Source: Eledone cirrhosa (taxonomy: Eukaryota). Taken from it: a stretch of 64,000 nucleotides of DNA. The notes beneath the pieces were generated by a model. The model was not told the origin of the DNA. It ran no database searches and was given only the letters and a program-made list of their open reading frames with translations. The position numbers and the translations under genes were made by a program. Below, one piece after another: positions 751 through 64,000 of the stretch; within the stretch, counting starts at the first letter, position 1, and every line of letters begins with the position of its first letter. The DNA is taken from assembly GCA_964016885.1 (NCBI GenBank), contig OZ024741.1:293074001-293138000 (forward strand). Direction: 5' to 3'.

Positions 751-3390
751 CATCATCATCATCATCATCATCGTTTAACGTCCATCTTCCACGCTTGCAT
801 GGGATTGGACGGGAATTTTCCCACTAGAGGCAAGATTGGTTGTCTTGCTTGCATAGGACTGTCTGGCGGGTTTTCTATGGCTGGATGCCCTTCCTAACAC
901 CAACCACGTTTACAGTGTGGACTGGGAGGTTTTTACCGTGTTGCCTACACGGCCACATTACAGCGTGGACTCTGTTTTTTTGACGTGACACCTACACGAC
1001 CTCATTTATTTCGGACTGGATGTTGTGGTACCAACATAACTTTACATTGAAAGGGTGGTGTGGATGGGGTGGGGGTAGTGGGACGGGGGTGTATTATGTT
1101 AGAGGTGCCTACTGACTGTAGTAGGTTTCACTTTGCACTTAGGTAAGGTGGGTCTTCACTATTACTGTGTAGCGCCAAAGATCTCGGTCCAGTGACATTG
1201 TCTTGGAGAGGTGTAAGTGTGAAGTTGGAATTTATCAAGTCGTCCCAGGTTTTTCTGGGTCTGCCTACTCCGTGGCTACAGTCTATTTTTATCGTCCTGC
1301 TCATTTTTATACAGCTGTCGTCTTTCATGCGCATCATGTGACCATACCAACGTAGTCTTCTCGCGAGTAAACAACATCTGATTCCTCTTATTCCTAATTT
1401 CTCCCTTAGTTCATTTATGCTTTGCCGTTCACGTATATTACTATTACACATCCAATGGAGCATGCAAGCTTCGTTCCTCTCCAGTCTGTGTATATCCTCT
1501 GCACACAATGCCCAAGTCTCACTGCCATGTAACATTGCTGTTCATATGCAGGCATCATACAGCCTGCCTTTCATTTTTAGAGAGAAACCTTTAGCGGCCA
1601 ATAGTGGTATAAGCTCTCTGAACTTTTTTCATCCCGTTCTGACTCTAGCAACTGTAGTTTCAGAGCACCCTCCACCACTGCTGATTTTGTCACCCAGGTA
1701 ACGGAAGGTGTCCACTATTTCTATAGAACCATCTGTGCAATGGAATGAGCTAGTATTCTGTGGGCACTTGCTGCTACTTATTGCACCTGAGCACCGGCCA
1801 CATATAAAATCTATATTCTTAGTTAGCTTACCTGTGATCCCACTACATCATTTATGCACCCATACTTTGCATTTGGGACATAAAATGGAGTTTCTGCCTA
1901 CTCCTTTCCTACACACTGAGCATGGCCATTTCCCAGATGGGACCAGTGCCCTATTTTCCTTCCTACAAACTAGAACTTTAGTCCTAGACAGGTTAATTTT
2001 AAGGCCTTTTGATTCTAGGCCATGCTTCCATGTTTGGAATTTCTTCTCTAGTTCAGCCATTGATTCAGCTATGAGCATTAGATCATCTGCGTTTAGGAGT
2101 TCCCATGGGCAGCCGGTCTTGAACTCCTCTGTTATAGCCTGAAGGGCAATAATAAATAGTAGGGGGCTAAGGACGGAACCCTGATGAACACCAACTTTTA
2201 CGCTAAACTCTTCACTATATTCGTTGTTAATTTTAACTTTGCTGACTGTTTCTTTATATATGGCTTGTATAGCTCTTACAAGCCATTCATCAACACCTTG
2301 TTTTCTGAGAGCCCACCAGATAATGGGGCGTGGGACTCTGTCAAAGGCTTTCTCCAAGTCAACAAAAGCTAAGTATAGGGGTTTACTTTTAGCTAGGTAC
2401 TTCTCCTGTAGTTGTCTTACAATGAAAAGAGCATCTGTGGTACTTTTACCTGACACAAACCCGAACTGCATTTCATCTAGATCAATTTGCTCTCTGATTA
2501 GTTGCGCTATTACTTTTTCTGTGACCTTCATGACCTGGTCAATTAATTTAATGCCTCTATAGTTTAACCTATCTAGGGCATCTCCTTTACCCTTGTAGCA
2601 GTTAATGATGATGCTGCTACGCCAGTCCTTCGGAACGACCCCATTCTGTATGACTTGGTTTACTATCCGGGTGACCATAGTGTGTCCCACCGTTCCAGAT
2701 GCTTTCAGCATTTTGGCAACTATTTCCAAAGGCCCAGCCACCTTGCCTGTCTTCATATCTTTGATCGCCTTACTTATTATACTACCTTCAATTTGCACTG
2801 CTGGTCCCTCTATTGGATCGATGTGGGGGAGACTTTTTTCTCCCATTTATTCTCCTCATTTAGTAGCCTTTCGTAGTGACACTTCCAAGCTACTTTCTTA
2901 TCAGCGTCAGTGATGGCAAGTACACCATCATCATTTAGGACACACTTCTCCCCGACAATATCATGGTTTTCCTTGACACATTGCCTAGCAATCCTGAACA
3001 TCTCACGTTTTTGGTCCTCGCATTGTAGAACATGCTTGAACTTTCTTTCCTCTGCTTCCCTTCTTGCGAAGTACACTTGTCTCCTAGCTTCCCTCCTGGC
3101 CACTTGATAGTCTTCTCTAGTTCCTCCATCCCGCCATACTTTCCAAGCCTGCTTTTTGGCCTTGATTGACTCCTCCACCTTACTGTTCCACCACCAAGTT
3201 ACTCTCCTCCTGCCTATAGGTCTGCTCCAGCCACAGGTTTCATCTGTCGCCTTCAGCAGGTTACCTTTCAGGAATTCCCACTGTTCCTCTATATTGTACG
3301 ACTCTAATTGCTCTTCCTTACTATCAAAAGCATCAAGTAATATGCTTTTGAAATTATTACTGGCTGTGGGGTCCTTTAGCTTCCATATTT
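751..3390 (-). mobile_element. RTE-clade LINE, 5'-truncated and frameshifted (subfamily A, long 3'UTR)
   Basis: ORFs 2810-3454, 1848-2846 and 1128-1535 give RT motifs ([26 protein letters not shown] for YADD) and RTE C-terminal RLRWYGH/GRPRKTW; (GAT)n tail at 751-772; (TA)n on both sides. Confidence 0.92.
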
Positions 3391-3604
3391 TTATATATAT
3401 ATATATATATATATAGGCACATCCTTGTTTTATGGATTTGTGAAATAAATACACTAAATATGCATGGTTTGGAGGACTTAAACACTGTGCATGGAGTTAA
3501 AATAATATTTAATAATAATACCAATGCCCTCATGCTAGTGTGTAAAGCAAATCTGAAAACAATGATGTTACTACAAGTTTCTCAAAATACCAAATGCTGG
3601 TCCT

Positions 3605-35090: not shown

Positions 35091-35274
35091 TATATATTTG
35101 CGGGTATTTATATATATATATATATATGTGTATGTGTGCAGGTATATATTTGCTTATATATTTATATATATATATATGTATGCATATATATATATATGTA
35201 TGCATATATATGTATATATATCTATATATACACATGTAAAAAAATATATGTATTTACATATATATATATATATA

Positions 35275-36115
35275 TAAACGGAAAAAATGAAACGAATTTC
35301 ATTTCCCACTCTTAGTACGGCTGTTACTTAAATATAAGTATGTACACGTACATACATATATGTATACAGACGTATAGTAGTATGTATATATATATACATA
35401 CATGCACACATATATATATGTACGTATGGATTCACCGAACATTTATTATAATGCTCGGTGTGTAATAAGCTTGAAACTAGTACAGTGTTCCTTTGTCGGT
35501 GTTGAACAAACGAGCAACGATGGTTGCTAGACACTACGGCTTAATACGGGATGTTTGTTTACAAACACACCGAGCATTATAATAAATGTTCGGTGAATCC
35601 ATACGTACATATATATATATATATGTGTGCATGTATGTATATATATATACATACTACTGTACGTCTGTATACATATATGTATGTACGTGTACATACTTAT
35701 ATTTAAGTAACAGCCGTACTAAGAGTGGGAAATGAAATTTCGTTTCATTTTTTCCGTTTATCGTTTTCGATGCACCCGGCCGATATGCAAATTGGGCTAC
35801 TCAGCCGTTAATATGCATAAGGTAGGTATATGCGTTCAACAATCTGGCAGGAAGGTATACGTTGCAGACGATAGCTAATAAGCTTGAAACTAGTACAGTG
35901 TTCCTTTGTCGGTGTTGAACAAACGAGCAACGATGGTTTGCTAGACACTACGGCTTAATACGGGATGTTTGTTTACAAACAGACCGAGCATTATAATAAA
36001 TGTTCGGTGAATCCATACGTACATATATATATGCGTGCATGTATGTGTATATATATATATACATACTACTGTACGTCTGTATACATATATGTATGTACGT
36101 GTACATACTTATATA
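35275..36115 (+). mobile_element. retrozyme-like element: 413-bp partial tandem unit with inverted 5' arm
   Basis: TAATAAGCTTGAAACTAG at 35463 and 35876; 35275-35463 is the reverse complement of 35565-35760; ATGCAAAT at 35785; HHR-like motif at 35834-35920. Confidence 0.75.
35834..35920 (+). ncRNA. hammerhead-like motif with CAGACGA core and long stem I
   Basis: GTTCAACA...TTG-CAGACGA-T-AGCT aata AGCT-T-GAAAC-TA-GTA-CAG...TGTTGAAC. Confidence 0.6.
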
Positions 36116-36131
36116 TATATATATATATATA

Positions 36132-39014: not shown

Positions 39015-42000
39015 AGAACAAAAGATGGTTAAAAGAGTTCCATGTATTTTATTATGCGCATTTCAAAAACAAATATCATCATATTTGTGTTTTCATCAGA
39101 TAAAACAGGAAGACATGATATGAAGGTTAAAAAACACCTGTGGATAGTGCAGTTTTAAATCAACATATGAGAAGTAGTTTTAGATTTATGTGTGATATTG
39201 GGAAAAATATTTTATTTTGAGGGGGGGGGGTGAAAAAGAGGAGGAGAGGAGAGTAAAAAGTGGAGAGGGAGGAGTATAATGAGGAAAGATGAGATAGGAG
39301 GAGAGATGGGTGATAGAGAGAGAGAGAGATATCTTTTATAACTGAGAAAGATATATTGTTTTACATAGAGAGGTTGAAAACCGTTGGAAGATAATGTATA
39401 AATTAAAAGAATTTGAAAATTAACGAAGAGAAAAATAATGTAAAGTTAAGGTTTGTATATTGAGGGGTTTAATAATATGTGCAATGAAAAGAAAATGTTA
39501 ATATGTATTAAGAATAATATTTAAGGGTTTAATAACATGTGCGATGGAAAGAAAAAGTTAATATGTATTAAGAATGATATTTAAGGGTTTAATAATATGT
39601 GCGATGGAAAGAAAATGTTGATATGTATTATTAAAAAGAACAACAGGTAATTTAAGTAAGGATATATTATGAGATGAGCATGAATGAGTTAGATGAAAGG
39701 GAGAAAAGAATAATGAATTGAGGATGAATAATCTAACGTCAAAAAAATGTTTATGTTTACGAAGGATTTTTACAAGGTGATATAGAGTAAGAATGTATTG
39801 TATTATGTAATAATTGATTCTATGTTAGGCAACAGTGAGAAAAGGTACAGATTAGGGGTTAGACATTAAAAGAAAAAGAGAAGAAGTGAAGTGATAAATA
39901 GGAGCGATATAGAACGAGTAACAAGTATTATAGAATGAGTGACAAGTATTATATAATGTATAATAAAACCTTTGAAATAAGGTAGAAAGATGGGTATATT
40001 TTTAAAGAAGTGTATATATATATATGTGCCTTTGAGAAAAAGATTCTAAATTGATAAAGATTTGGATATTAGCTGTATACTTTGTGGAATGTTTTGTGGA
40101 ATTTATGCAAGCAGATAGAAAACAAGTCAGTGCGTCTATTTATTATAGAATCTAAATTAGATATAATGGTAAATTTTTCATTTAGACAGAGATTGCAAAT
40201 CTTGGATAGAGAACTGTTCAAGTATGGAGACGCAGAAGAAACCTTCTTCCAAAAGATGCTATATTTAATATTTTTGTCTTTCAAGGACCATATGAGTTCT
40301 GAGAGAGCCGTGTTGGTTCTTTTAAGTTTGTATTTAAAAGACGAATGATGGTTATAAAGACGAGCTTTAAAAGAGGTGGAAGTGGGGCCAAAATAGGTGA
40401 AGGAATTGGTGTCAGTTATAACTTTACATTCGTAAATTAAGTTTTTATCAAGACAATGGTTGTTGAGAGGACATTTATTTTTAACAGGGCAATTGCAATT
40501 GCGATTAGAGAGATTATTAACGAGTGACCTAGTGTTATCTATAGAAGGAATTGGATTGGAGAAGTTATTTGCGATAGGAATAATAGTTTCTTGATTTAGA
40601 ATGGGATTAAGAACATTTAGCGAAGTTGTGTTTGACGTTGTATTTGGGTTTGCAGAAATTAGCCTAGGGTTTACAATGACGTCGGGAGTACTATTACTAT
40701 TATTATGATATTCAGTGTTGGGAGGAAGAGATTTAGTATTTAGTATTTTATTGTTGTGTTTAGAGATAATGTTGGAAATGTTGGGGGATGTAGAATAGGA
40801 AAATTGTATAGTGTGTTTGTTAAATATTTTACTATAGATATGAGAGGGAGGGAAGCATTTATTTAAGGCACTAAAGAATAATTTAGGAATATTATTATTA
40901 ATAGAGATGGAGAAAGGAGCATTATACCAGATTATGTTTTTGTATCTAGGTCTTTTATTAAAGTTATTGGAATGATGATGATTAATTATTCTACTGTAAG
41001 TTCTTCTAGAATTTGTTTCTTTACTATATTTGATTTTATCAGGATAGCCGGCTTTAGAAAGCGCGTTATTATAGTAATTGGCGTTAGCATCAAAGATGTT
41101 TTATTAGAAGATAGGTTAGATATTCTTTTTCCAATATTACTAACTATAGCATTCTTGATATTAGTAGGATGGTTAGATTTAAATTAACATAATTTAGGTT
41201 CTCATTGTTTTTATGGTAAGGGTAATGTAGGCCAGTGTCAAGATTAAGAGATACATCCAAGAAATTAGCTAGTTTGATGCTGTTATCAAATTCAATTTTT
41301 AGGTTATGTTGGTTAAAGAGATTACGTATATTGTTCTTAATAATATTAAGGTTAACTATGTTGCAATTTAAGATAGTAAAGAGTCCATCGTCACGATAAA
41401 TTCCACCGCGAAGTTGAGGAATTTTCCGACTCAAAGAGTTCAAAATAAAGATACCAATTAAATCTGTCAATTGGGATGAATCGGATGCTCCCATTGTGAT
41501 GTCGAAGTTGTTAGCGGCTCTGGTCCAATATTCGTTGTTGAACTCTAGGATGGTTTTACGTGCGGTGAGAATGGTGTGAAGTTCATCTGTGGTGATGTCA
41601 GAATATTTAAGTGCGAAAGATAGAGCATTATTGAGAAGTGAAGGCGAAATAGAAGAATAGTAGCTGGCAATATCAAATTGAACAAATTTTAGTTTGTTTT
41701 TATTATTCAATTTGTTGAACCAGCTAATCACTTCAGAAGTACCAAACCATAAATTTAAGTTCAAAGAAGAGCAATTAGAACGAACCTGTGGGATAATTCT
41801 ATCCAAGATGGCTTTACTAACAACCCCCAGATCTGATTTAGAGGGGGCGATTAATCTAACAGGTAGTTCAGTGCGAAAATTGTTTTTGTGATCCTTGAGA
41901 TTTATCCTCGGAGTTCTTGGGAGGAATGGTACGGTCTTTTTTTCAATGCCAAGTTTTGACATAATCTCAGAGGCTTCAAGGTTTATGTATTCTAAATTTT

Positions 42001-42295
42001 CATGGTTGGTTTTACGATATTTTTTCCTAAGTTCCTTTAGGATAAGGTTGTTATAATTATCCTTGGAAATATTATATAAGTTATTGGTTTTGTCAGAGTG
42101 GACTAAAACATTTTTTGAGGAATTTAGGTTTGAAATTGTGTTCTTGAGATTTACAAGGTGCTCTTGTCCTTTGTAAGGGTATCTCTTGAATTTAAGATTT
42201 TTTATAATTTTAGTTAACTCTTCCTCGAATTGCACTAGATTTTTGTTGGAAGGAGGTTTCTTCTAGAATTAAATTTGTACTACAATAAAACTCAC
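39015..42295 (-). mobile_element. Penelope-like retroelement (Naiad-like), 5'-truncated and frameshifted
   Basis: RT 41144-42235 (LKDHK..VRLIAPSKS, QFDIASYYSSI, ITMGASDS, GIYRDDGL, NFLDVSL); GIY-YIG region ~40069-40505 (CNCPVKNKCPLNNHC, LIYEC, YFGPTS..FKARLYNH, CNLCLNEK); ~1-kb 3'UTR ending in an HHR. Confidence 0.9.
39047..39105 (-). ncRNA. canonical minimal hammerhead ribozyme at the PLE 3' end
   Basis: reverse complement TTTTAT-CTGATGA-AAACACAAATAT gatg ATATTTGTTTTT-GAAAT-GCGC-ATA-ATAAAA; palindromic loop 3. Confidence 0.85.
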
Positions 42296-44460: not shown

Positions 44461-44540
44461 AATTGTATATGTATGTATATGTATATATATATTTGTATAT
44501 ATATATGCATATATATATATTTGTATGTATAAATATATAT

Positions 44541-44680
44541 AGTCCAGAAATAGCCGTCGAAACGGCTTGAGCTCTGCTGTCGGTGTCATACTTTTTCCTA
44601 TTACCCATTCTACTACCCTAAGTATTGAGTACTCTGGTGCGTTATGGTCCATCTGGTTCCTTACCACAATTCCTTCATTA
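44541..44680 (+). repeat. single arm of the 62466-62827 palindromic element
   Basis: GTCCAGAAATAGCCGTCGAAACGGCTTGAGCTC...TTCCTTCATT inside (TA)n; related diverged piece at 43945-43998 (-). Confidence 0.75.
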
Positions 44681-44705
44681 TATATATATATATATATGTA
44701 TATAC

Positions 44706-52381: not shown

Positions 52382-54138
52382 TCATCATCATCATTTTACA
52401 TCCGCTTTTCCCTGCTTGCAAGGATTGGACGGGTCTTATTCAGCACTTGTCACGGTCCTTCATCATCTCTTCCGTGAGTTTCAGCAATCTGAGGTCTGCT
52501 CTCACCACCTCTGCCCATGTTTTTCGTGGTCTACCACTACTGCATCTTCCTTCTACTGGCATTTCTTGGCACTTCTTTACCAGTGGTCATACTCAATGCG
52601 CATCACATGACCAAAACATCTCAGCCTTCTCTCCTACACACCACAAATTATCACTCTTATACCCAGTTTCTTTCTCAACTCATCTATGCTTGGTCGTTCA
52701 TGCACATTGGCATTGCATGTCCAACGGAGCATGCTTGCTTCATTTCTCTCCAGCCGTAGCATATCTTCTGCTGTTGCTGCCCATATCTTACTACCATGCA
52801 GCATCGTGCATCTCACACAGGCATCATATAACCGTACTTTCAAACGCAGGGAGAAACCCTTCTTTGTCAACAGAGGAAGCAGCTCCCTAAACTTCTTCCA
52901 ACCCATCCTTATTCTAGATACTATGGCCTCGGAACCCCCCCCCCCCCCCTCTCCCATGCTATTCTGATCACCTAAGTACCAGAAGACATCAACCACTTCT
53001 ATAGAACCCACCTGCATTGGAAAAATGTGTCTATCACTGCGATTCCTACTGCCAACTTACCCTGTACATCTACTGCATACATATTTCTCCCTACCTGTTA
53101 GTTTGCCTGCTATCACACTACATCTCTTGTGTACTCAGGATCTGCATTGTGTACATTTTATGGAATTTATGCCAGTTCTTTCCTACATATCGAACATGGC
53201 TATTTCCCTGATGGAATCAGAGTATTGTCCTCTTTTCTACTTATCAACACTTTTGTTTTAGCTATGTTCACTCTCAGTCCTCTTGATTCTAACTGCTGTT
53301 TCCATAGCCAGAATTTATTCTCTAGCTCCTCTACTGATTCTGCTATAAGAACAAGATCATCAACATAGAGAAGTTCCCATGGGCAGCCAGTCTTAAACTC
53401 CTCTGTTATGGCTTGGTGGACTATAATGAACAAGAGCGGGCTGAGGACCGAGTGATGATGTACACCTACTTGTATCTAGAATTCCTCACTAAACTCCATT
53501 CCAATTCTCACTTTACTGACAGCACCCCTGTACATAGCTTGCACTGTCCTCACAAGCCATTCCTCTACACCTAGTTTCCTTAGGGACCACCAGATGATAG
53601 TTCAGGATGCCCTATCAAAGGCCTCCTTTAGGTCAACAAAAGCTAACTATAGTGACATATTCTTCTCTAAGAACCTCTCTTGTAGTTGCCTCACTAAGAA
53701 GAGGGCATCTGTTGTACTTTGCCAAGGCACAATACCAAACTGCATCTCAGCTAATTTGACCCTTTCTCTCATCAGTTGCGCAAATATTCTCTCTGCCACT
53801 TTCAAAACCTGATCCATCAGCTTTATGCCCCTATAATTGCTCCTCTCTAGAGCATCCCCTTTAACTTTGTAGAAATTTATGAGAATACTGCTCCACCAGT
53901 CTTTGGGTATGACACCGCCATATATAGCTTGATTGATGATGCGTGCAACTAGTTTAGTGTCTACTTCTCCTGATGCTTTCAACATCTCAACAACTATGCC
54001 CGACGGTCCAGCAGCCTTACCATTCTTCATTTCCTTAATTGCCTCTTGTACCCTATATTCATCAATCTCAATAGCTGGTCCCTCTGTCGGGTCTACTGGT
54101 GGTAATTTCTCTCCGTCCCATTTGTTCTCCACATTCAT
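52382..54138 (-). mobile_element. RTE subfamily B LINE, truncated and disrupted
   Basis: ORFs 53647-54138, 53200-53433 (LLYVDDLVL) and 52634-53017. Confidence 0.9.
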
Positions 54139-54243
54139 ATGTATTTATATATATGTACATATATATGTATATATGTATATATATATGTACATATATATAT
54201 ATGTATACATATAGATGTATATATATACATATATATATATATA

Positions 54244-54632
54244 TCATCATCATCATCATCATCAACGTTTAACGTCCGTGTTCCATGCTTGCATGGGTTT
54301 GGACAGGGGTTTCCCCACTTGAGGCAAGAGTGATTATCTTGCTCGCATAGGACTATCTGGCGGGTTTTCTACAGCTGGATGCCGTTCCTAACACCAACCA
54401 CATTTACAGTGTGGGGCTGGGAGGTTTTTACCGTGTTGCCTACACGGCCACATTACAGCGTGGACTGTGTGTTTTTTGTCGTGACACCTACACGATCTCA
54501 TTTGTTTCGGCCTGGATGTTGTGGCACCAACATAACTTTACATTGAAAGGGGCGGTGTGGATGGGGTGGGGCTGGTGGGACGGGGGGTGTATTTTGTTAG
54601 AGATGCCTACTGACTGTAGTAGGTTTTACTTT
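54244..54632 (-). mobile_element. RTE subfamily A 3'UTR fragment
   Basis: homologous to 751-1135. Confidence 0.85.
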
Positions 54633-54782
54633 GTATATATGTATATATATAGATGTATATATGAACATATATATGTATATATATATGTATGTATATATAT
54701 ACGTACATATTTATGTTTATATATATATGTACATATATATATGTATATGTATGTATATATACGTATACATATGTATATATGA

Positions 54783-55001
54783 CAGTCGATTGACTTTCGT
54801 CAAATCGGACCGAGGAAACAATGTGTCCATTGGTCTTTCCAATTGCTTATACTATCTATCAGTCGCAACTCCAGGTAGAAGGAGCAATGTGAAATAAAGT
54901 GTCTCGCCCAAGGACATAACGCATCGCCCGGTCCAGGAATCGAACTCACAACCTGATGGTTGCGAGTTGAATTTTCTTACCACTCAGCCATGCGCCTTCA
55001 C
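54783..55001 (-). mobile_element. SINE family 4 copy
   Basis: TGGCTGAGTGG, GAGTTCGATTCC, core and tail as at 28008. Confidence 0.75.
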
Positions 55002-55021
55002 AATATATATATATATACATA

Positions 55022-55091
<70 letters not shown>

Positions 55092-55184
55092 TAAATATAT
55101 ATGTATAAATATATATATACGTATATATGTATATATGTATAAATATATATACAAATATATATATGTATGTATATATGTATAAAT

Positions 55185-56492
55185 CACCATCATCATCATC
55201 ACTATTTTACGTCCGTTCTTCCACGCTAGCATGGGTTAGACGGGTTGTCCTGTTGTGGGCAGTGTCCGGTCGGCTGACCATACCTAGCTCATACAGGAAC
55301 TGATTCTGGCTTGATTTCTACAGCTGGATGCCCTTCCTAACACCAACCTCATTTACAGTGAGTGCTGGGTGCTTTTTTCCGTGGCGCCTATACCTCCACT
55401 TTGCAGTGGGAGGGAGTGGGGGCATATTGTCTATATGCTTCAGCTTCGGCTTGTACCCGTGGGGAATCGGGTCTTCTGTATTACTGTGTGACGCCAGAGG
55501 TGTAATTGAGTAAGGTCAGCTTTTAACACCTCATCCCAGGTCTCCCCATCTTGGGTCTCCCCACTCCACGCTTTCCATCGACTTTTAGTTCTCTGCACCT
55601 TTTTATGCAGCTGTCATCCTTCATATGCATCACATATCCATACCAACACAACCACCTCTCCTGCACACAGCATTTGATTCCTCTTATGCTCAGTCTCTCT
55701 CTCTCAATTCATTTATGCTTTGCCGTTTGTGTATATTACTATTACACAACCATCGGAGCATGCAAGCTTCGTTTCTTTCTAATCTACGCAAGTCTTCCAC
55801 AGACAGCACCCAGGTCTCACTACCATGTAATATTGCTGTTCGTATACACCCATCATAGTGTCTGCCTTTCATTTTGAGGGAAAAGCCTTTTGCAGCTGGG
55901 AGTGGCAGTAGCTCCCTGAACTTCTTCCATCCCGTTCTTACCCTAGTTATTTTACTTTCCGAACACCTACCTCTGCTGCTAATTCGGCCACCTAGGTAGC
56001 AGAAGCTGTCTACTGTTTCTACAGAGCCCTCCCAGAGTTTGGTGTTACTTGTTTCCTGTGGCTGTTTGCTAGTTGCCGTCCCAGCACAGTTGCTACATGT
56101 GAAGCCTACATTCTTAGTTAAGCTTCCTGAGATCCCGTTGCATCTCTTGTGTACCCATTGCATTTGGGGCAGAGAATGGAGTTCCTACCTACACCTTTCC
56201 TACACACTGAGCAAAGCCATTTCCCTGAGGGGATCTGGGTTCTGTTTTCTTGTCTACTTACAAGGACCTTAGTCTTTGTCAGGTTGGCCCTGAGACACTT
56301 TCTCTCTAGTCCCTGCTTCCATGTGTGGAATTTCTTCTCTAGTTCTAACATAGATTCAGCTATAAGTGGGAGGTCATCTGCCTACAGGTGTTCCCATGGG
56401 CATCCGGTCTTAAACTCCTCTGTTATTGCCAGCAGAACTATGATGAACAGGAGAGAGCTAAGAACAGAGCCCTGGTGGACACTGACCTGTAT
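55185..56492 (-). mobile_element. RTE subfamily C LINE fragment
   Basis: ORFs 56118-56351 and 55690-56163 (WKKFRELLP, LHGSETW); 3'UTR nearly identical to the SINE family 3 tail. Confidence 0.88.
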
Positions 56493-56899: not shown

Positions 56900-59218
56900 A
56901 GGAATAACCAAAGAGTGCTTAGAAATACATTGTTTTGTTAGCTAACAGTGTTTCATCCATACCCCATGGCAGGAATCATCAGAGCTTATAAAGAAGAGTA
57001 TATCAATAGTTGCATGCTCCATCGAGCTGCGTCACCAATACAAGGTTAAAGGACCACCAGGTGTGTCCCGAGGCCAGCGCTATATGGAAAAAGACAGAAT
57101 ACATGATGCATATAATGTTATAAATGTCATAAAAAATTACATTAAAAATTAAAAATAACAGCAAAAATTTATCACTTAAATGGTGCAATAGATGATAAAG
57201 AGGTTTGGGAGAGGGTAGCAAGGAATGAGTGAAGGTATTACTCAGTATGATCAAAAACAATAAAAAAAAAGTACAAAAATACAAAGATAACAAAAGAAAT
57301 AAATATAAAAATAAAATATAAAAAACAATAAAGGACCCCCCCCCCCCCAAAAAAAAAGCAAAGCATAGATGCCTCAAAATATAAGCAGTGCAAAAACAGG
57401 CTGTACAGGCAGATTAAGAGAGTTTGCAAGCATGAGTCTGTGAGAATAGTTGGTTAGCAGTGTTGCAGCCTTACATGTATGATAGTCCATAGGAAGGACT
57501 ATTTTTACAAAACATATACTCAAGGCGGTCAGCGATATACACCTAAAATCTAAAATAAAAGAAAGTACGAAGAGTTGAAGAAATGTATCGTACATGTACA
57601 GCCGGCACACAAGTGAGGAAATTGAAGATATGACAGGTCCACTGTAACTGGCATCCCTCAAAGTCCTCACGTTCGGTCGCTCGACCCAACGTCCAAGTGA
57701 AATTCACTGTATGTCCGAGTTGGCATCCAACCAATGTGTCGTACCGTATACGGCCGGAGTTCAATTTTCAGTGTCGCACATTGCCTTGAGTGTGGTTCTA
57801 TAATTCATCAAAGCTGGAGCACAATTCATATTCAACAAATTCAAACTTTCAAAGGTTAGCCTCTCGCTAGTAACACACAACGGTTGTCAGAATATACACT
57901 CAGGAAGTCGTAGTGTGCTTATGAAAAGTACGGGAGGCAATACGCGTCATAAAGGGCGGATTCATTAGATATCCAAAGGGACGCGTGGGGCGAGTCATTT
58001 GTTCGATTCAAACCCCTCAGCGATCAACTACCCGTTCCCCCTGGCGATTGATCGATTCTGCGGCACCTAGCCCACACGATTTGCTACCATAGTTCACTAT
58101 ACTATGTTAGATCTATCACACACTTTAAGGTTAAGGCCAACTGGACCCCGGGTGCCCAATTTACCCGCTTTGTGGCTGCGGCGGGGTTTTCTGGGCTTTT
58201 GACAGACTATTATGCTGTGCTATCAGTTAACGCACAATGGGTGTGGTTATAAACCATATTAATATGGTTAGTGTGGGTAGGTGCCTATATAGGGTCAAAC
58301 TATGCTAGGTAAAGTGAAGAGCCTTAAGTAGGTCGCACCCTATGGGTTCTTGGCCTGGGGTAATAAGATGAACTAGGGAAGAGAGGAAGAAAAAAGTAAT
58401 AGAGAGGGAAGAGGAGAAAAAAATGGGAAGAAATATTAGAGTAGTCTATATACACTTGAAGGGCAGTTATCGTCACAAAGGAACCAGGGTGCAGTGCGGC
58501 GTGGTTTTATGTAGGCCAGACAGGAGGGAGGTATGCAAGTCCTACAGCGTTAGCTAATTGGTCTAATGTAATAGAAGGAGCTAAGATTTATGTGCAGGCA
58601 AGAAGAGAATATTTCTGATTTCCTATTTAGCAGGTTCAGTTTGGAGTATATTATGGCATGTGATTCAGGGAGACAAAGTCACAGGTTTTGCTAGGGGGTC
58701 TGTACTGCGATGATTTAGTGATGATTCCCCAATCAAGCGTGTATTGAATATCAGTGTTCTTCAGGAGGGATATGTAACTAGCTAGGGATGTTGTGGTATT
58801 CTTAGGTCTATTATGTCTAAATGTATATCGATGGGAGTTGTATCTAGTCTTAAAGGGGGTCGATGTAGACCCTATATATGTTTTGGAGGAGGTCCGAGTT
58901 GTAACATCACATGCGTAGACAATATTGTTTATAAGGCATTGCCCCTTTAAGGGGCACTCCGACTTTTGTCTACAGTTACATTTGCGGTGCATGTGAGTCT
59001 GCGGCACAGGAGGTGTTTGGTTTTCCGTGCGTTCCAGAATTGGCAAACGTACACCAGATGTGTGGATAGTATTGGTGGTTGACGCTGCAGCAGGTCCATC
59101 TAGTGGGTGCGGGTGCCTCGCAGCTGCAATGGTATCGAAGCCCTTTCTAATTTTTTTATTGTTCGTTATGGCTAGGTGACGAGCTAGATTTGGAGTGGTG
59201 GAGAATGATAGCTTAATT
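56900..59218 (-). mobile_element. Penelope-like element 3' part (GIY-YIG plus long 3'UTR)
   Basis: ORF 58651-59046 [34 protein letters not shown]; downstream frameshifted LLNRKSEIFSSCLH; ~1.6-kb tail ending in an HHR. Confidence 0.85.
56940..56986 (-). ncRNA. canonical-core minimal hammerhead motif
   Basis: reverse complement AGCT-CTGATGA-TTCC TGCC atgg GGTA T GGAT-GAAAC-ACT-GTT-AGCT. Confidence 0.7.
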
Positions 59219-59281
59219 GTATATGTACATATATATGTATATATATCATCATATATATCTATATATCTATATATATATCTA

Positions 59282-59340
<59 letters not shown>

Positions 59341-59344
<4 letters not shown>

Positions 59345-59529
59345 TCATCATCACCATCGTTTAACGCCCATCTTCCATGCTTGCATGGGTTTGGACGGGA
59401 GTTTTCCCACTTGAGGCAAGATTGGTTATCTTGCTCGTATAGGACTGTCTGGCGGATTTTCTACGGCTGGATGCCCTTCCTAACACCTACCACATTTACA
59501 GTGTGGGCTGGGAGGCTTTTACCGTGTTT

Positions 59530-59687: not shown

Positions 59688-61597
59688 ATCATCATCATCA
59701 TCATCATCATCATTTTACGTCCGCTTTTGGGTGGGACGGGTCTTATTCAGCACAGCATATCTCCACTCGTCACGGTCCTCCGTCATCTCCACCGTGAGCT
59801 TCAATGATCTGAGGTATGTTCTCACCACCTCAGCCCATTTTTTTTCGTGGTCTACCTCTACCACGTCTTCCTTCGACTGGCATTTCCTGGCACTTCTTCC
59901 CCCATCGGTCATCTTCCATGCGCATCACATGTCCATACCACCTCAGTCTCCTCTCCCGTACTCTACATTCTATCCCTCTCAGACACAGTTTCTCTCTCAA
60001 CATTTATGCTGGGTCATTCACGCACATTTACACTGCACATCCAACGGAGCATGCTTGCCTCATTTCTCTCCAGCCGTCGCATATCCTCTGAAGTTGCTGC
60101 CCATGTCTCACTACCATGCAGCATCGCGCTCCTCAAACAGTCATCGTACAACCGGCCTTTTGTACGCAGGGAGAAACCCTTCTTCGTCAACAGAGGAAGC
60201 AGCTCCCTAAACTTCTTCCAACCCGTCCTTATTCCAGATACTATGACCTCGGAACACCTTCCTGCCGTGCTAATCTGATCTCCTAGGTACCGGAAGCTAT
60301 CCACCACTTCTATAGAACCCTCCTGCATTTGAAAAATGTGTCTATCAATGCGACTTCTACTGTCTAATTTCCCTGTACATCTACTGCATACATATTTCTC
60401 CCTACCTTTTAGTTTGCCTGCTATTGCGCTACATCTCTTGTGTACCCAGGATCTGCATTGTGTGCATTTTATAGAATTTATATCAGTTCCTTTTCTGCAT
60501 ATCGAACATGGCCATTTCCCTGACGGAATCAGCGTTTTGTCCTCTTTTCTACTCATCAACACTTTTGTCTTAGCTAGGTTCACTCTCAGTCCTCTTGCTT
60601 CCAACTGCTGTTTCCATAGCCAGAATTTATTCTCTAGCTCCTCTACTGATTCTGCTATAAGAACCAGATCGTCAGCATAGAGAAGTTCCCTTGGACAGTC
60701 AGTCTTAAACTCCTCTGTTATGGCTTGGAGGACTATAATGAACAAGAGCGGGCTGAGGACCGAACCCTGATGTACTCCTACTTGTATCTGGAATTCCTCA
60801 CTAAACTCCATTCCTACCCTGACGTTACTGAGAGAACCTCTGTACAAAGTTTGCACTGTCCTCACAAGCCATTCCTCAACACCTAGCTTCCTTAGGGACC
60901 ACCAGATCACAGATCGGGGTACTCTAGGTCAACAAAGGCTAAGTATAGTGGCTTATTTTTCTCTAAGAACCTCTCTTGCAATTGTCTCACCAAGAAGAGG
61001 GCATCTGTTGTACTCTTCCCATGCACAAAACCAAACTGCATCTAGTTTGACCCTTTCTCTAATTAGTTGTGCTAATATCCTTTCTGCCACTTTCATAACC
61101 TAATCTATCAGTTTTATACCCCTATAATTGCTCCTCTCCAGAGCATCCCCTTTACATTTGTAGCAATTTATGAGAATGCTGCTGCACCAGTCTTTGGGTA
61201 TGACACCACCATATATAGCCTGATTGATGATGGGTGCAACTAGTTTAGTGCCTACGTCCCATGATGCCTTTAGCATCTCAGCAACTATTCCCGATGGTCC
61301 AGCAGCCTTACCATTTTTCATTTCCCTAGTCGCCTCTTGTACCCTATATTCGTCAATCTCAATAGCTGGTCCCTCTGTCAGATCTACTGAGGGTAATTTC
61401 TCTTTCTCCCATTCGTTCTCCACATTCATCAGTCTCTCATAATGACATTTCCAGGCCTCCTTTTTCTGATCATTCGTGACACTAAGTACACCGGCATCAT
61501 CCCGGACACATCCCAACAACATCCTGATTTGCATTGACACACTGCCTTGCAATGTGGAACACCGCATGCCTCTCTGCATTCTAAGTACACCTGACGT
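59688..61597 (-). mobile_element. RTE subfamily B LINE, 5'-truncated
   Basis: ORFs 61100-61579 and 60014-60910 ([22 protein letters not shown], Cys/His finger); (GAT)n tail; (TA)n flanks. Confidence 0.92.
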
Positions 61598-62465: not shown

Positions 62466-62825
62466 AACGAAGGAAATGTGGTAAGAAAGCAGGTGGACCA
62501 TAACGGACCAAAGTACTCAATACTTAGGGTAGAGTGGGTAATAGGAACGAGTAGGACCCCGACGGCTGAGCTCAAGCCGTTTCGACGGCTAATTCTGGAC
62601 TAAATGAACATTTTTATCCTGGTATCTGAATAGCCGAGCTTCTCAGAGAAGTTCGGCTATTCATATACCAGGATAAACATTTTCATTTCGTCCAGAATTA
62701 GCCGTCGAAACGGCTTGAGCTCAGCCGACGGGGTCCTACTCGTTCCTATTACCCACTCTACTACCCTAAGTATTGAGTACTTTGGTGCGTTATGGTCCAC
62801 CTGGTTCCTTACCACATTTCCTTCG

Positions 62826-62827
<2 letters not shown>
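62466..62827. repeat. near-perfect palindrome (~180-bp arms, 1-nt centre) in (TA)n
   Basis: AACGAAGGAAATGTGGTAAG... / ...CTTACCACATTTCCTTCGTT; centre TTCTC-A-GAGAA at ~62645. Confidence 0.92.
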
Positions 62828-62896
<69 letters not shown>

Positions 62897-63700
62897 TGTA
62901 TGTAATGTAGAATTATTTTGTATTATGAAATCCAAAAACATTTTATTAAATAACAGAATAGAGCGATCGTTATACTGTAACCATCGCTTAAAATCTACAT
63001 TTTCATATTATAAATACTACCAGGATTGAACGCCTGTCTCTATCCCCGTTTGATTGTCAAAATAGATATGAACATTCTTTATTAGTCTTAATTCTATCAA
63101 CTCTTCTATTATTTACCTTTTAATACAAACTGCTATAGATAAAATGAGATTTCTGATTTCTTGATTCAATTCCCTAATGCATATACCAGCTGGCTACTAG
63201 CATTGATGTTATTTAGTAGCAATCGAAATCTCCCCCTTCACCAATTGACACTTTATAATTAATACTACTGCACCAAATGACCAGCCCTGTTCACTGTCCA
63301 GTTGGTCAAGTAGAGATTAAAATTGGCACTCCCAAAATTCTTATTTAGATTTACTCATGGGATTCTCATTAGAAACCCATTATATACTTGTTTAGCAGTA
63401 AATTATTTTACCATCTGTCATATACTATCCCCTCTGTTCCTTCCTCTTTTACTAATATAAATACTTCAATTTTTCTGATTTTATCCAGTGACCAGTGAAA
63501 GACTTGGTACATCTACATATGTATACGTGTGTGTATTCATATGCATACTAGTATTTCAGTATACATATGTGGATGTACATTTTTAACTTAATTGTTTAAG
63601 CGTCAGTCATACAAAAGTGAGTTACAAACGAAACGAAATTTAATTTCGTTTCGTTATTTGTTTTTATCGTCTCCGTTGAACCGGTACGTACTCACACTCT

Positions 63701-63748
63701 ATGCAAATTGGTCTGCTCACTACTAATTTTCATAGAAAAAGCATATAA
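63701..63748 (+). promoter_or_regulatory. octamer plus PSE-like/TATA-like box (putative snRNA-type promoter)
   Basis: ATGCAAAT at 63701, then CTCACTACTAATTTTCATAG and ATATAA; equivalent ATGCAAATTGG..CTCAGCCGTTAATATGCATAAG..GTATAT at 35785. Confidence 0.4.
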
Positions 63749-63765
63749 CGATATGTGCTTTTACG

Positions 63766-63861
63766 ATTCTCCAGAAAGGCCGGTAGATAGGTAAATATTG
63801 CTGATGAGTTGTAACAACAACGAAACTAGTTCAATATTCCTTGTCTGGCTTTCTGGAGAAT
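63766..63861 (+). ncRNA. canonical type-I hammerhead ribozyme with long stem I
   Basis: ATTCTCCAGAAAGGCC..AGATAGG..AATATTG-CTGATGA-GTTG taacaa CAAC-GAAAC-TA-GTT-CAATATT-CCTTGTCT-GGCTTTCTGGAGAAT; palindromic ACTAGT for dimeric stem III. Confidence 0.9.
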
Positions 63862-64000
63862 AGAGGAAAAGTGTTTCCTCAAAAACCAGTATGACTCTAA
63901 AAACCGGTTTGTCTGTGTGTTTACATACAGAATAGCTGGCCACTCACAGTAAAGTGACCAGTGAAAGACTTGGTACATCTACATATGTATACGTGTGTGT

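Follow-up and report, generated by a model that had tools for sequence, protein, structure and literature searches.

The satellite 2 repeat of newts, for which a 1994 study by Coats, Zhang and Epstein is said to be the source and the octamer of which is reportedly distal, and the SINE-like Sm-alpha repeats of schistosomes, the Pol III promoter of which is of the A/B-box type, are among the systems closest to the element described in the present study. Newt satellite 2 is a hammerhead repeat with a weak stem III that is transcribed by Pol II from an internal snRNA-type promoter and cleaved as a dimer (PMC2220036, PMC6765202). In the Sm-alpha repeats, a Pol III promoter is followed by the hammerhead, the upstream copy drives the next one, and single copies cannot propagate (PMC6765202). 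Animal non-LTR retrozymes have been described as non-coding tandem units of ~170-400 nt with type I hammerheads, a GC content below 45%, and tens of thousands of copies; cleavage and circular RNAs were demonstrated, axolotl members have a short stem III and need dimers, and Penelope-like elements (PLEs) were proposed as the mobilizer (PMC7229834). In the accessible part of that article, the word "promoter" appears only for T7, and octopus and cephalopod are absent. A preprint gives unit lengths of 51-972 bp, bases the connection between retrozymes and PLEs on their co-occurrence and on pLTR homology, and reports in vitro cleavage for one of nine retrozyme dimers, with no mollusc and no promoters in its accessible part (bioRxiv 10.64898/2026.07.22.740005). 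PLEs themselves show inverted partners, tails, and (TA)n targets (PMC8557442), and an anole PLE used two internal start sites in vitro and extended both strands, hammerhead cleavage being dispensable for insertion (PMC11167929).

Judged by structure and by analogy, the element at the end of the window, by which we mean the whole stretch of 64,000 nucleotides of Eledone cirrhosa DNA that was analyzed, may be regarded as an animal non-LTR retrozyme that would work like newt satellite 2. It shares with the retrozymes of PMC7229834 the non-coding tandem type I hammerhead units, the low GC content, and the copy number, and with those of the axolotl the short stem III and the need for dimers; its unit of 466 bp is longer than the ~170-400 nt given there and falls within the range of the preprint. 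As in Sm-alpha, a putative promoter precedes the hammerhead, an upstream copy would drive the next one, and single copies cannot propagate, whereas the upstream motifs are of the snRNA type here. With PLEs and their derivatives, the element has in common partial tandems, 5' truncation, an inverted 5'-truncated partner, a tail, AT-rich or (TA)n targets, and a hammerhead in the repeat; unlike PLEs, it has no ORF, its tail is ~70 nt instead of 30-40, and no homologous pLTR was found in the PLEs sampled. Retrozyme structure, the proposed PLE link, and a promoter of the satellite 2 type are already known. New are the host-calibrated promoter in two forms, the scale, and the rule by which two 3' end sites, A and B, are combined at the junctions. 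While cleavage and circular RNAs are documented in PMC7229834, promoter motifs and junctions are mapped here, and the link to PLEs is one of junction anatomy, unlike the co-occurrence and pLTR homology of the preprint. A search of the literature, with Repbase/Dfam, supplements, and subscription papers, which may contain these families, outside its range, brought up neither the families nor any invertebrate retrozyme with an snRNA-type promoter, and in the accessible parts of the literature examined a retrozyme promoter had been identified before only in the newt and schistosome cases.

The last 514 bases of the window consist of one unit followed by the initial 48 bases of another (Table 1; fetched loci are cited by L numbers). 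The period of 466 bp follows from an exact 48-nt repeat at 63487 and 63953, which bears out the partial tandem reported in the first-pass annotation, and the hairpin, the octamer at 63701, and the PSE-like box listed there are all in place (TATGCAAAT begins at 63700 and ATGCAAAT at 63701). The family 1 unit is non-coding, with a GC content of 0.356 and a longest ATG ORF of 50 aa. Past the window edge, the second unit reaches unit position ~181 and is followed by (TA)n, so that the insertion comprises 1.37 units with one hammerhead; an inverted arm is absent. The window locus with one hammerhead cannot make a monomer alone, and with respect to circles this copy probably leads nowhere. The 466-nt monomer or circular RNA that the first-pass annotation had considered possible could only come from longer arrays.

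Table 1. Features of the family 1 retrozyme copy at the end of the window (window coordinates).
Feature	Position	Strand	Remark
Complete 466-bp retrozyme unit, family 1	63487..63952	+	abrupt 5' truncation at 63487
Second unit, start	63953..64000	+	rest outside the window, to (TA)n (L001 1967-2137)
Long hairpin, 5' of 3' end site B	63507..63578	+	circular fold
T5 run, unit 94-98, potential Pol III stop	63580..63584	+	
Site B, where family insertions have a fixed 3' end; unit 107-112	63593..63598	+	putative reverse-transcription start
Perfect hairpin, 5' of 3' end site A	63627..63655	+	
Site A, likewise a fixed 3' end, with T5 run; unit 175-181	63661..63667	+	
Octamer-containing box TATGCAAATTGG	63700..63711	+	TATGCAAATTAG in the majority allele, exactly as in host U6 L072 and both tRNA-Sec genes
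YCA box, box+17	63717..63720	+	counterpart of the [TC]CA that host small-RNA genes of the Pol II class carry at -55 to -58
TATA-like element CATATAA, box+42 to +44	63742..63748	+	TATATA in family 2
Predicted transcription start, box+73, C|A	63773	+	predicted from host spacing
Type I hammerhead, extended bulged stem I	63766..63861	+	core at 63801-63831; stem III ACTAGT, palindromic; cut after GUU predicted at 63831|63832

Regarding the hammerhead, the core begins with CTGATGA at 63801, and GAAAC-TA-GTT ends at 63831. Stem I folds into a bulged helix of ~29 bp (z = -5.3, from 200 shuffles), in good agreement with the bulged stem of ~30 bp claimed earlier. Stem III of the monomer has a 2-nt loop and a pairing probability near zero, and two copies cofold through ACUAGU, the sequence that had been described as self-complementary. 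Since a palindromic stem III with a 2-nt loop cannot close in a monomer, the hammerhead needs a dimer. GUU is a weaker cleavage triplet. The assignment of a type I hammerhead ~100 nt downstream of the promoter motifs is supported by the core, the fold, and an Rfam model; the word "textbook" overstated the case, given the GUU triplet and the lack of a closed monomer stem III. The Rfam/Infernal check proposed with that assignment gave a divided answer, with zero matches over the window at the gathering score and a match of Hammerhead_HH9 at 63783-63854 with 38.6 bits (gathering 52) and an E value of 8e-8. Between subfamilies, stem II shows a compensatory change from GTTGT/ACAAC to GATGT/ACATC. 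The cut-site base is U in 275, C in 145, A in 138, and G in 1 of 559 matches in the fetched loci (overlaps included), and the stem III loop is palindromic in 50 of 56 distinct cores, most of which descend from families 1 and 2.

Young insertions of this non-coding element with its ribozyme number in the thousands, and the 466-bp repeat belongs to them. A DNA search returned 966 candidates, and full-length matches among the 40 that were scored are 97-100% identical. The genome-wide copy count that had been suggested yielded 62,007 matches to the hammerhead pattern against 654 in the reversed control. Family 2 is related to family 1, has a unit of ~420 bp, and is abundant. Family 3 is without the octamer, has a unit of 311 bp (e.g. 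L184 1301-1611; L214-L217) and two 3' ends 26 nt apart, and accounts for 17,574 matches (control, 4). Array sizes range from partial units to at least 28; satellite-like arrays of family 1 comprise at least 28 (G000:C1:5738326-5751969) and at least 14 units (C1:14044535-14050763), and two or more hammerheads in tandem are present in 35 of 132 resolved family arms. Four sequencing runs of unrecorded kind yielded only contigs that resemble DNA and are nearly identical, with great depth in X1 and little depth in X4-X6, and were set aside as evidence for expression, copy number, and host range.

Two further observations concern related copies. A head-to-head copy of family 2 lies in the window at 35274-36117, with the identical octamer box at 35784 and the core GCAGACGA, and is probably inactive. 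An old dispersed single-copy family (L138, L141, L142, L149, L154, L155, L159, and L203-L212) combines the box and CCAGC with a hammerhead-like core in which the palindromic stem III is longer (e.g. ACAGCTGT), and many of its members appear decayed.

The promoters of host small-RNA genes were used for calibration. Loci of U1, U2, U4, U5, U6, U6atac, MRP, RNase P, U3, tRNA-Sec, U11, and U12 were compared; near-identical array copies, U6 L077 (promoter insertion), L084, and L085, five of six U6atac loci (L107-L111; without promoter motifs and read as pseudogenes), and tRNA-Sec L289-L292 (weak matches) were dropped, and RNase P was kept separate as ambiguous. The U3, U11, U12, and tRNA-Sec loci were fetched only after the motifs had been defined. 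In 7 of 7 retained U6/U6atac/MRP/tRNA-Sec promoters (hereafter the U6 class), TATG(C/G)(A/T)AAT(T/G)AG is located at -77 to -80 and TATA at -30 or -31, the box-TATA spacing is 47-49, the start is T|G, and YCA is found between -66 and -52 in 0 of 7, while [TC]CA at -55 to -58 is present in 21 of 21 Pol II-class promoters (U1/U2/U3/U4/U5/U11/U12); these counts are partly non-independent because of paralogues. The 12-mer is weak in U1/U2/U4/U5/U11/U12 (scores of at most 4.6). Host U3 (L279-L286), which we take to be a Pol II gene as in animals generally, has a degenerate octamer-like box (6.1-10.5 bits) at -74, YCA at -56, and TATA at -31. TATA-like boxes were also observed in host Pol II-class snRNA promoters, and a distal motif, TTACCTCCCTT, with two mismatches at most, at -257 to -288 in 17 of 29 host promoters of both classes. 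Host RNase P (L278) carries ATCAGT/YCAG and TATA without the box and ends in a T-run, from which it is probably a Pol III gene; YCA-TATA spacing is therefore no proof of Pol II. As a by-product, the comparison provides the promoter grammar of host small-RNA genes of the Pol II and the Pol III type.

When the box of the element was compared with the host 12-mer, the match of the window copy, which has one change, was equaled by 5 of 1000 shuffles and that of the majority allele by none of 1000. The alignment to host snRNA upstream regions proposed in the first-pass annotation thus led to the U6/tRNA-Sec box in the case of the majority allele, and the box is conserved in copies across the genome. 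An exact box lies 57-97 nt upstream of 29,146 of the 62,007 hammerhead matches (reversed control, 0). Among 30 loci picked by the hammerhead alone, it was present in 10 of the 15 non-family-3 matches, the remaining five being four apparently 5'-truncated copies and one of another family. When the main alleles were removed from the search, 868 box matches remained in diverged families. Across 19 clusters (72% identity), YCA occurs at box+17 in 13 and at any other offset in at most five, the TATA position peaks at box+43 to +46, and a pyrimidine-A step is found at box+73/74 in 10 of 13 clusters; these three positions lay outside the search pattern, whereas conservation of the box across clusters was partly built in by the search.

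The spacing corresponds to that of the host Pol II class, with YCA ~26 nt before the TATA-like box and Y|A ~56 nt after YCA; in family 1, the TATA is degenerate and situated inside a hairpin. The box-TATA spacing of 42-46 is that of the host Pol II-class core, unlike the U6 class. The box, YCA, and TATA follow the layout of U3, with the YCA of the element 1 nt nearer the box, and U3 is the best ungapped match for five of the eight element promoters tested. Both motifs of the octamer/PSE layout proposed earlier were therefore recovered, and the layout was refined: in contrast to newt satellite 2, the octamer is not distal and directly abuts the PSE-like YCA box within the U6-class 12-mer, in a U3-like arrangement, and promoter function, shown for the newt, is predicted here. 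Families 1 and 2 have no AATTA at ~-89 and no distal TTACCTCCCTT element (the best distal match of family 1 has three mismatches), and their U1/U2-type composite of AATTA and YCAG does not stand out from shuffled sequences (297, 255, and 80 of 1000). In family 3, we found the host distal element at -256, in the 3' arm of hammerhead stem I of the preceding unit, AATT at -89 (one change from AATTA), YCAG at -56, TATAA at -29, and a T|A start; its composite was equaled by 68 of 1000 shuffles, and by 3 of 1000 with a TATA flag in a test defined after family 3 had been seen. Broken octamers occur in 45 of 254 family 1 promoter copies (overlaps included), and some recur within arrays. Since Pol III would be expected to terminate at one of the T5 runs (unit 94 and unit 175) before the next hammerhead and the units contain no 3'-box-like motif, Pol II read-through is favored. 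Taken together, the promoter of family 1 appears to be a hybrid, the element probably has a working snRNA-type promoter, and Pol II is predicted as its polymerase with a considerable preference over Pol III. The comparison with host genes and the conservation across diverged families back the original idea of a retrozyme with a promoter of this type.

The 3' ends of insertions fall at unit 107-112 (site B) or 179-183 (site A), in each case after a hairpin and joined to (TA)n. Exact A-(AT) junctions number 1,957 genome-wide, and B junctions 387 on the plus strand, minus-strand matches being multiply counted. The comparison of arms started from 140 on contig C1; eight of them ran off the locus and were left out, and the other 132 were resolved. 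The 5' ends are spread across the unit, and an adjacent inverted arm accompanies 84 of the 132 resolved arms. All 16 head-to-head pairs in which both arms were identified consist of one A and one B arm, and 4 of 4 pairs or arrays of family 3 likewise mix their two ends. The fixed 3' end, variable 5' truncation, partial tandems, inverted partner, and two start sites that characterize PLE-type insertions are thus all present.

The genome also contains a young PLE with many intact 821-aa ORFs (RT and GIY-YIG) and its own hammerhead, near which there is no octamer box. Copies of this PLE have two 3' ends into (TA)n and a head-to-head arrangement, as in the retrozyme. Pfam gave no match for the PLE proteins; their Atlas neighbors carry GIY-YIG, RVT_1, and HTH_animal, and their homologues are 31-40% identical, with one named match, from Argonauta hians (38%). 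When homology of the terminal repeat to one PLE family was tested, the best blast hit had an E value of 0.017 over 24 nt, and a homologous terminal repeat was found in none of 30 GIY-YIG loci (of 150 listed, from 10,595 candidates). From the anatomy of their ends, the retrozyme insertions were likely copied by a Penelope enzyme. Retrozyme units adjoining the 821-aa PLE in L219, L231, and L247 were considered as partners and rejected; they belong to other families and are read as nested insertions. In the window itself, a frameshifted copy of the young PLE lies at 39099-42262 on the minus strand (frame 40069-42262), ends into (TA)n, and carries in its terminal repeat a hammerhead with a ATGCGCAT palindromic stem III.

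The arms also bear on the template for reverse transcription. Among arms reaching the cut site, 100 of 102 run through it and two stop within 8 nt, none of the 92 arms reaching the predicted start stops there, and the promoter is included in 81 of 132 resolved arms. Because most arms cross the cut site and the promoter, neither a cleaved linear monomer nor a single-unit primary transcript can be the main template, and a circle or multimer is the likely one. The difference between adjacent units is 49/10901 (0.45%) and that between two copies of one template position 21/4769 (0.44%); the units of L420 show zero substitutions among themselves and at least four differences from all 264 other units. 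This homogeneity fits a circle, and a homogeneous linear multimer, i.e. an array transcript, fits equally. The 5' insertion ends do not pile up at the cut (unit 338-354; 5 observed, 4.5 expected) or at the predicted start (2 observed, 4.1 expected), and the genome therefore bears no trace of cleavage or of this start site; 13 ends fall within unit 342-366 against 6.7 expected (p 0.02), an interval that was picked afterwards.

In our assessment, it is fairly probable that the window repeat belongs, as a truncated copy, to a young non-coding hammerhead family with host snRNA-promoter motifs and Penelope-type ends, which promotes itself and is copied by a PLE. SNAPc-type initiation would occur near 63773, more likely by Pol II, which would read through the T5 runs into the next unit. 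In arrays with at least two hammerheads, dimeric ribozymes would cut after GUU, and the monomers would be ligated into a 466-nt circle. A Penelope-like reverse transcriptase/GIY-YIG enzyme would nick both (TA)n strands and prime at sites A and B on one RNA, and reverse transcription may roll through the unit and thereby carry the upstream promoter along into new insertions. Counting against this account, ribozyme cutting in vivo leaves no sign in the arm data. The unlikely alternative that Pol III acts from a U6-type (type 3) promoter, with most transcripts stopping at the T5 runs and rare read-through yielding monomers, draws on the identity of the 12-mer with the U6/tRNA-Sec box, on CC at +16/17, which the majority allele shares with three U6 genes, on the T5/T6 runs that in families 1 and 2 follow a hairpin and lie just before the promoter, on the YCAG, TATA, and terminal T-run of RNase P, and on the Pol III transcription of schistosome hammerhead repeats (PMC6765202). 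It is at odds with the box-TATA spacing (42-46 against 47-49 in all seven U6-class promoters), with the YCA where the U6 class has none, and with predicted starts of Y|A against T|G. Moreover, B ends lie 9-14 nt past the T5 run and family 2 ends ~8 nt past the T6 run, and terminated transcripts thus cannot be the templates.

We regard it as less probable still that the promoter motifs are inherited remnants or an enhancer for a POU factor, the RNA arising by read-through from host genes or Penelope elements and the hammerheads being perhaps largely dispensable. The 5'-end positions without a trace of start site or cleavage, the propagation of broken octamers in some arrays, the shared ancestry of families, and the autonomous PLE without an octamer box near its hammerhead agree with remnants; however, the box, YCA, TATA, and YA hold the host spacing across clusters below 72-75% identity while the spacers drift, and a separate family, family 3, bears a different and equally host-like promoter set. 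Ordinary satellite DNA amplified at the DNA level by unequal crossover and fold-back repair, without an RNA intermediate, appears highly improbable. Long arrays of at least 28 units do occur, and DNA repair can create palindromes, but the dispersed copies, which number in the thousands and combine 3' ends fixed at (TA)n with variable 5' ends and a strict pairing of A and B, bear the marks of target-primed reverse transcription, as does the coding PLE. For the dispersed copies, this explanation is largely refuted, and it may still account for the growth of the longest arrays.

Beyond the self-promoted, PLE-copied element preferred above, we propose tentatively, as a possibility somewhat short of even, that animal retrozymes are self-promoted parasites of the snRNA transcription system, which in this genome acquired the host SNAPc promoter grammar in two forms, and that they spread by way of a Penelope dimer, which would prime both strands of the target from two fixed sites of a single, rolling circular RNA. 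The two promoter forms, a U3/U6-like one with the octamer and a complete U1/U2-like one, together amount to ~46,000 promoter-ribozyme units. Tens of thousands of snRNA-type promoters could compete for SNAPc or fire into neighboring genes. If true, this proposal would generalize the isolated case of newt satellite 2 and offer the first junction-level picture of retrozyme integration. With young near-identical copies, a predicted start, mutable boxes, two priming sites, and intact candidate enzymes, expression and spread are directly testable.

Other elements were noted in and around the window. A palindromic non-coding element at 62466-62830 (second copy, 44537-44682), with (TA)n flanks and without a hammerhead match, is likely another head-to-head family mobilized by PLEs. 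A palindromic (TA)-flanked element with TATGCAAATAAG near its center, antisense to the apparent 3' end, is present at L001 2160-2600 and at ~37150 in the window. Retroelement-like fragments were recognized by translation at 1848-3496, 53647-56184, and 60014-61597 (minus strand), which are presumably decayed RTE-like LINE fragments, and at 58651-59460 (minus strand), which we take to be a PLE endonuclease fragment.
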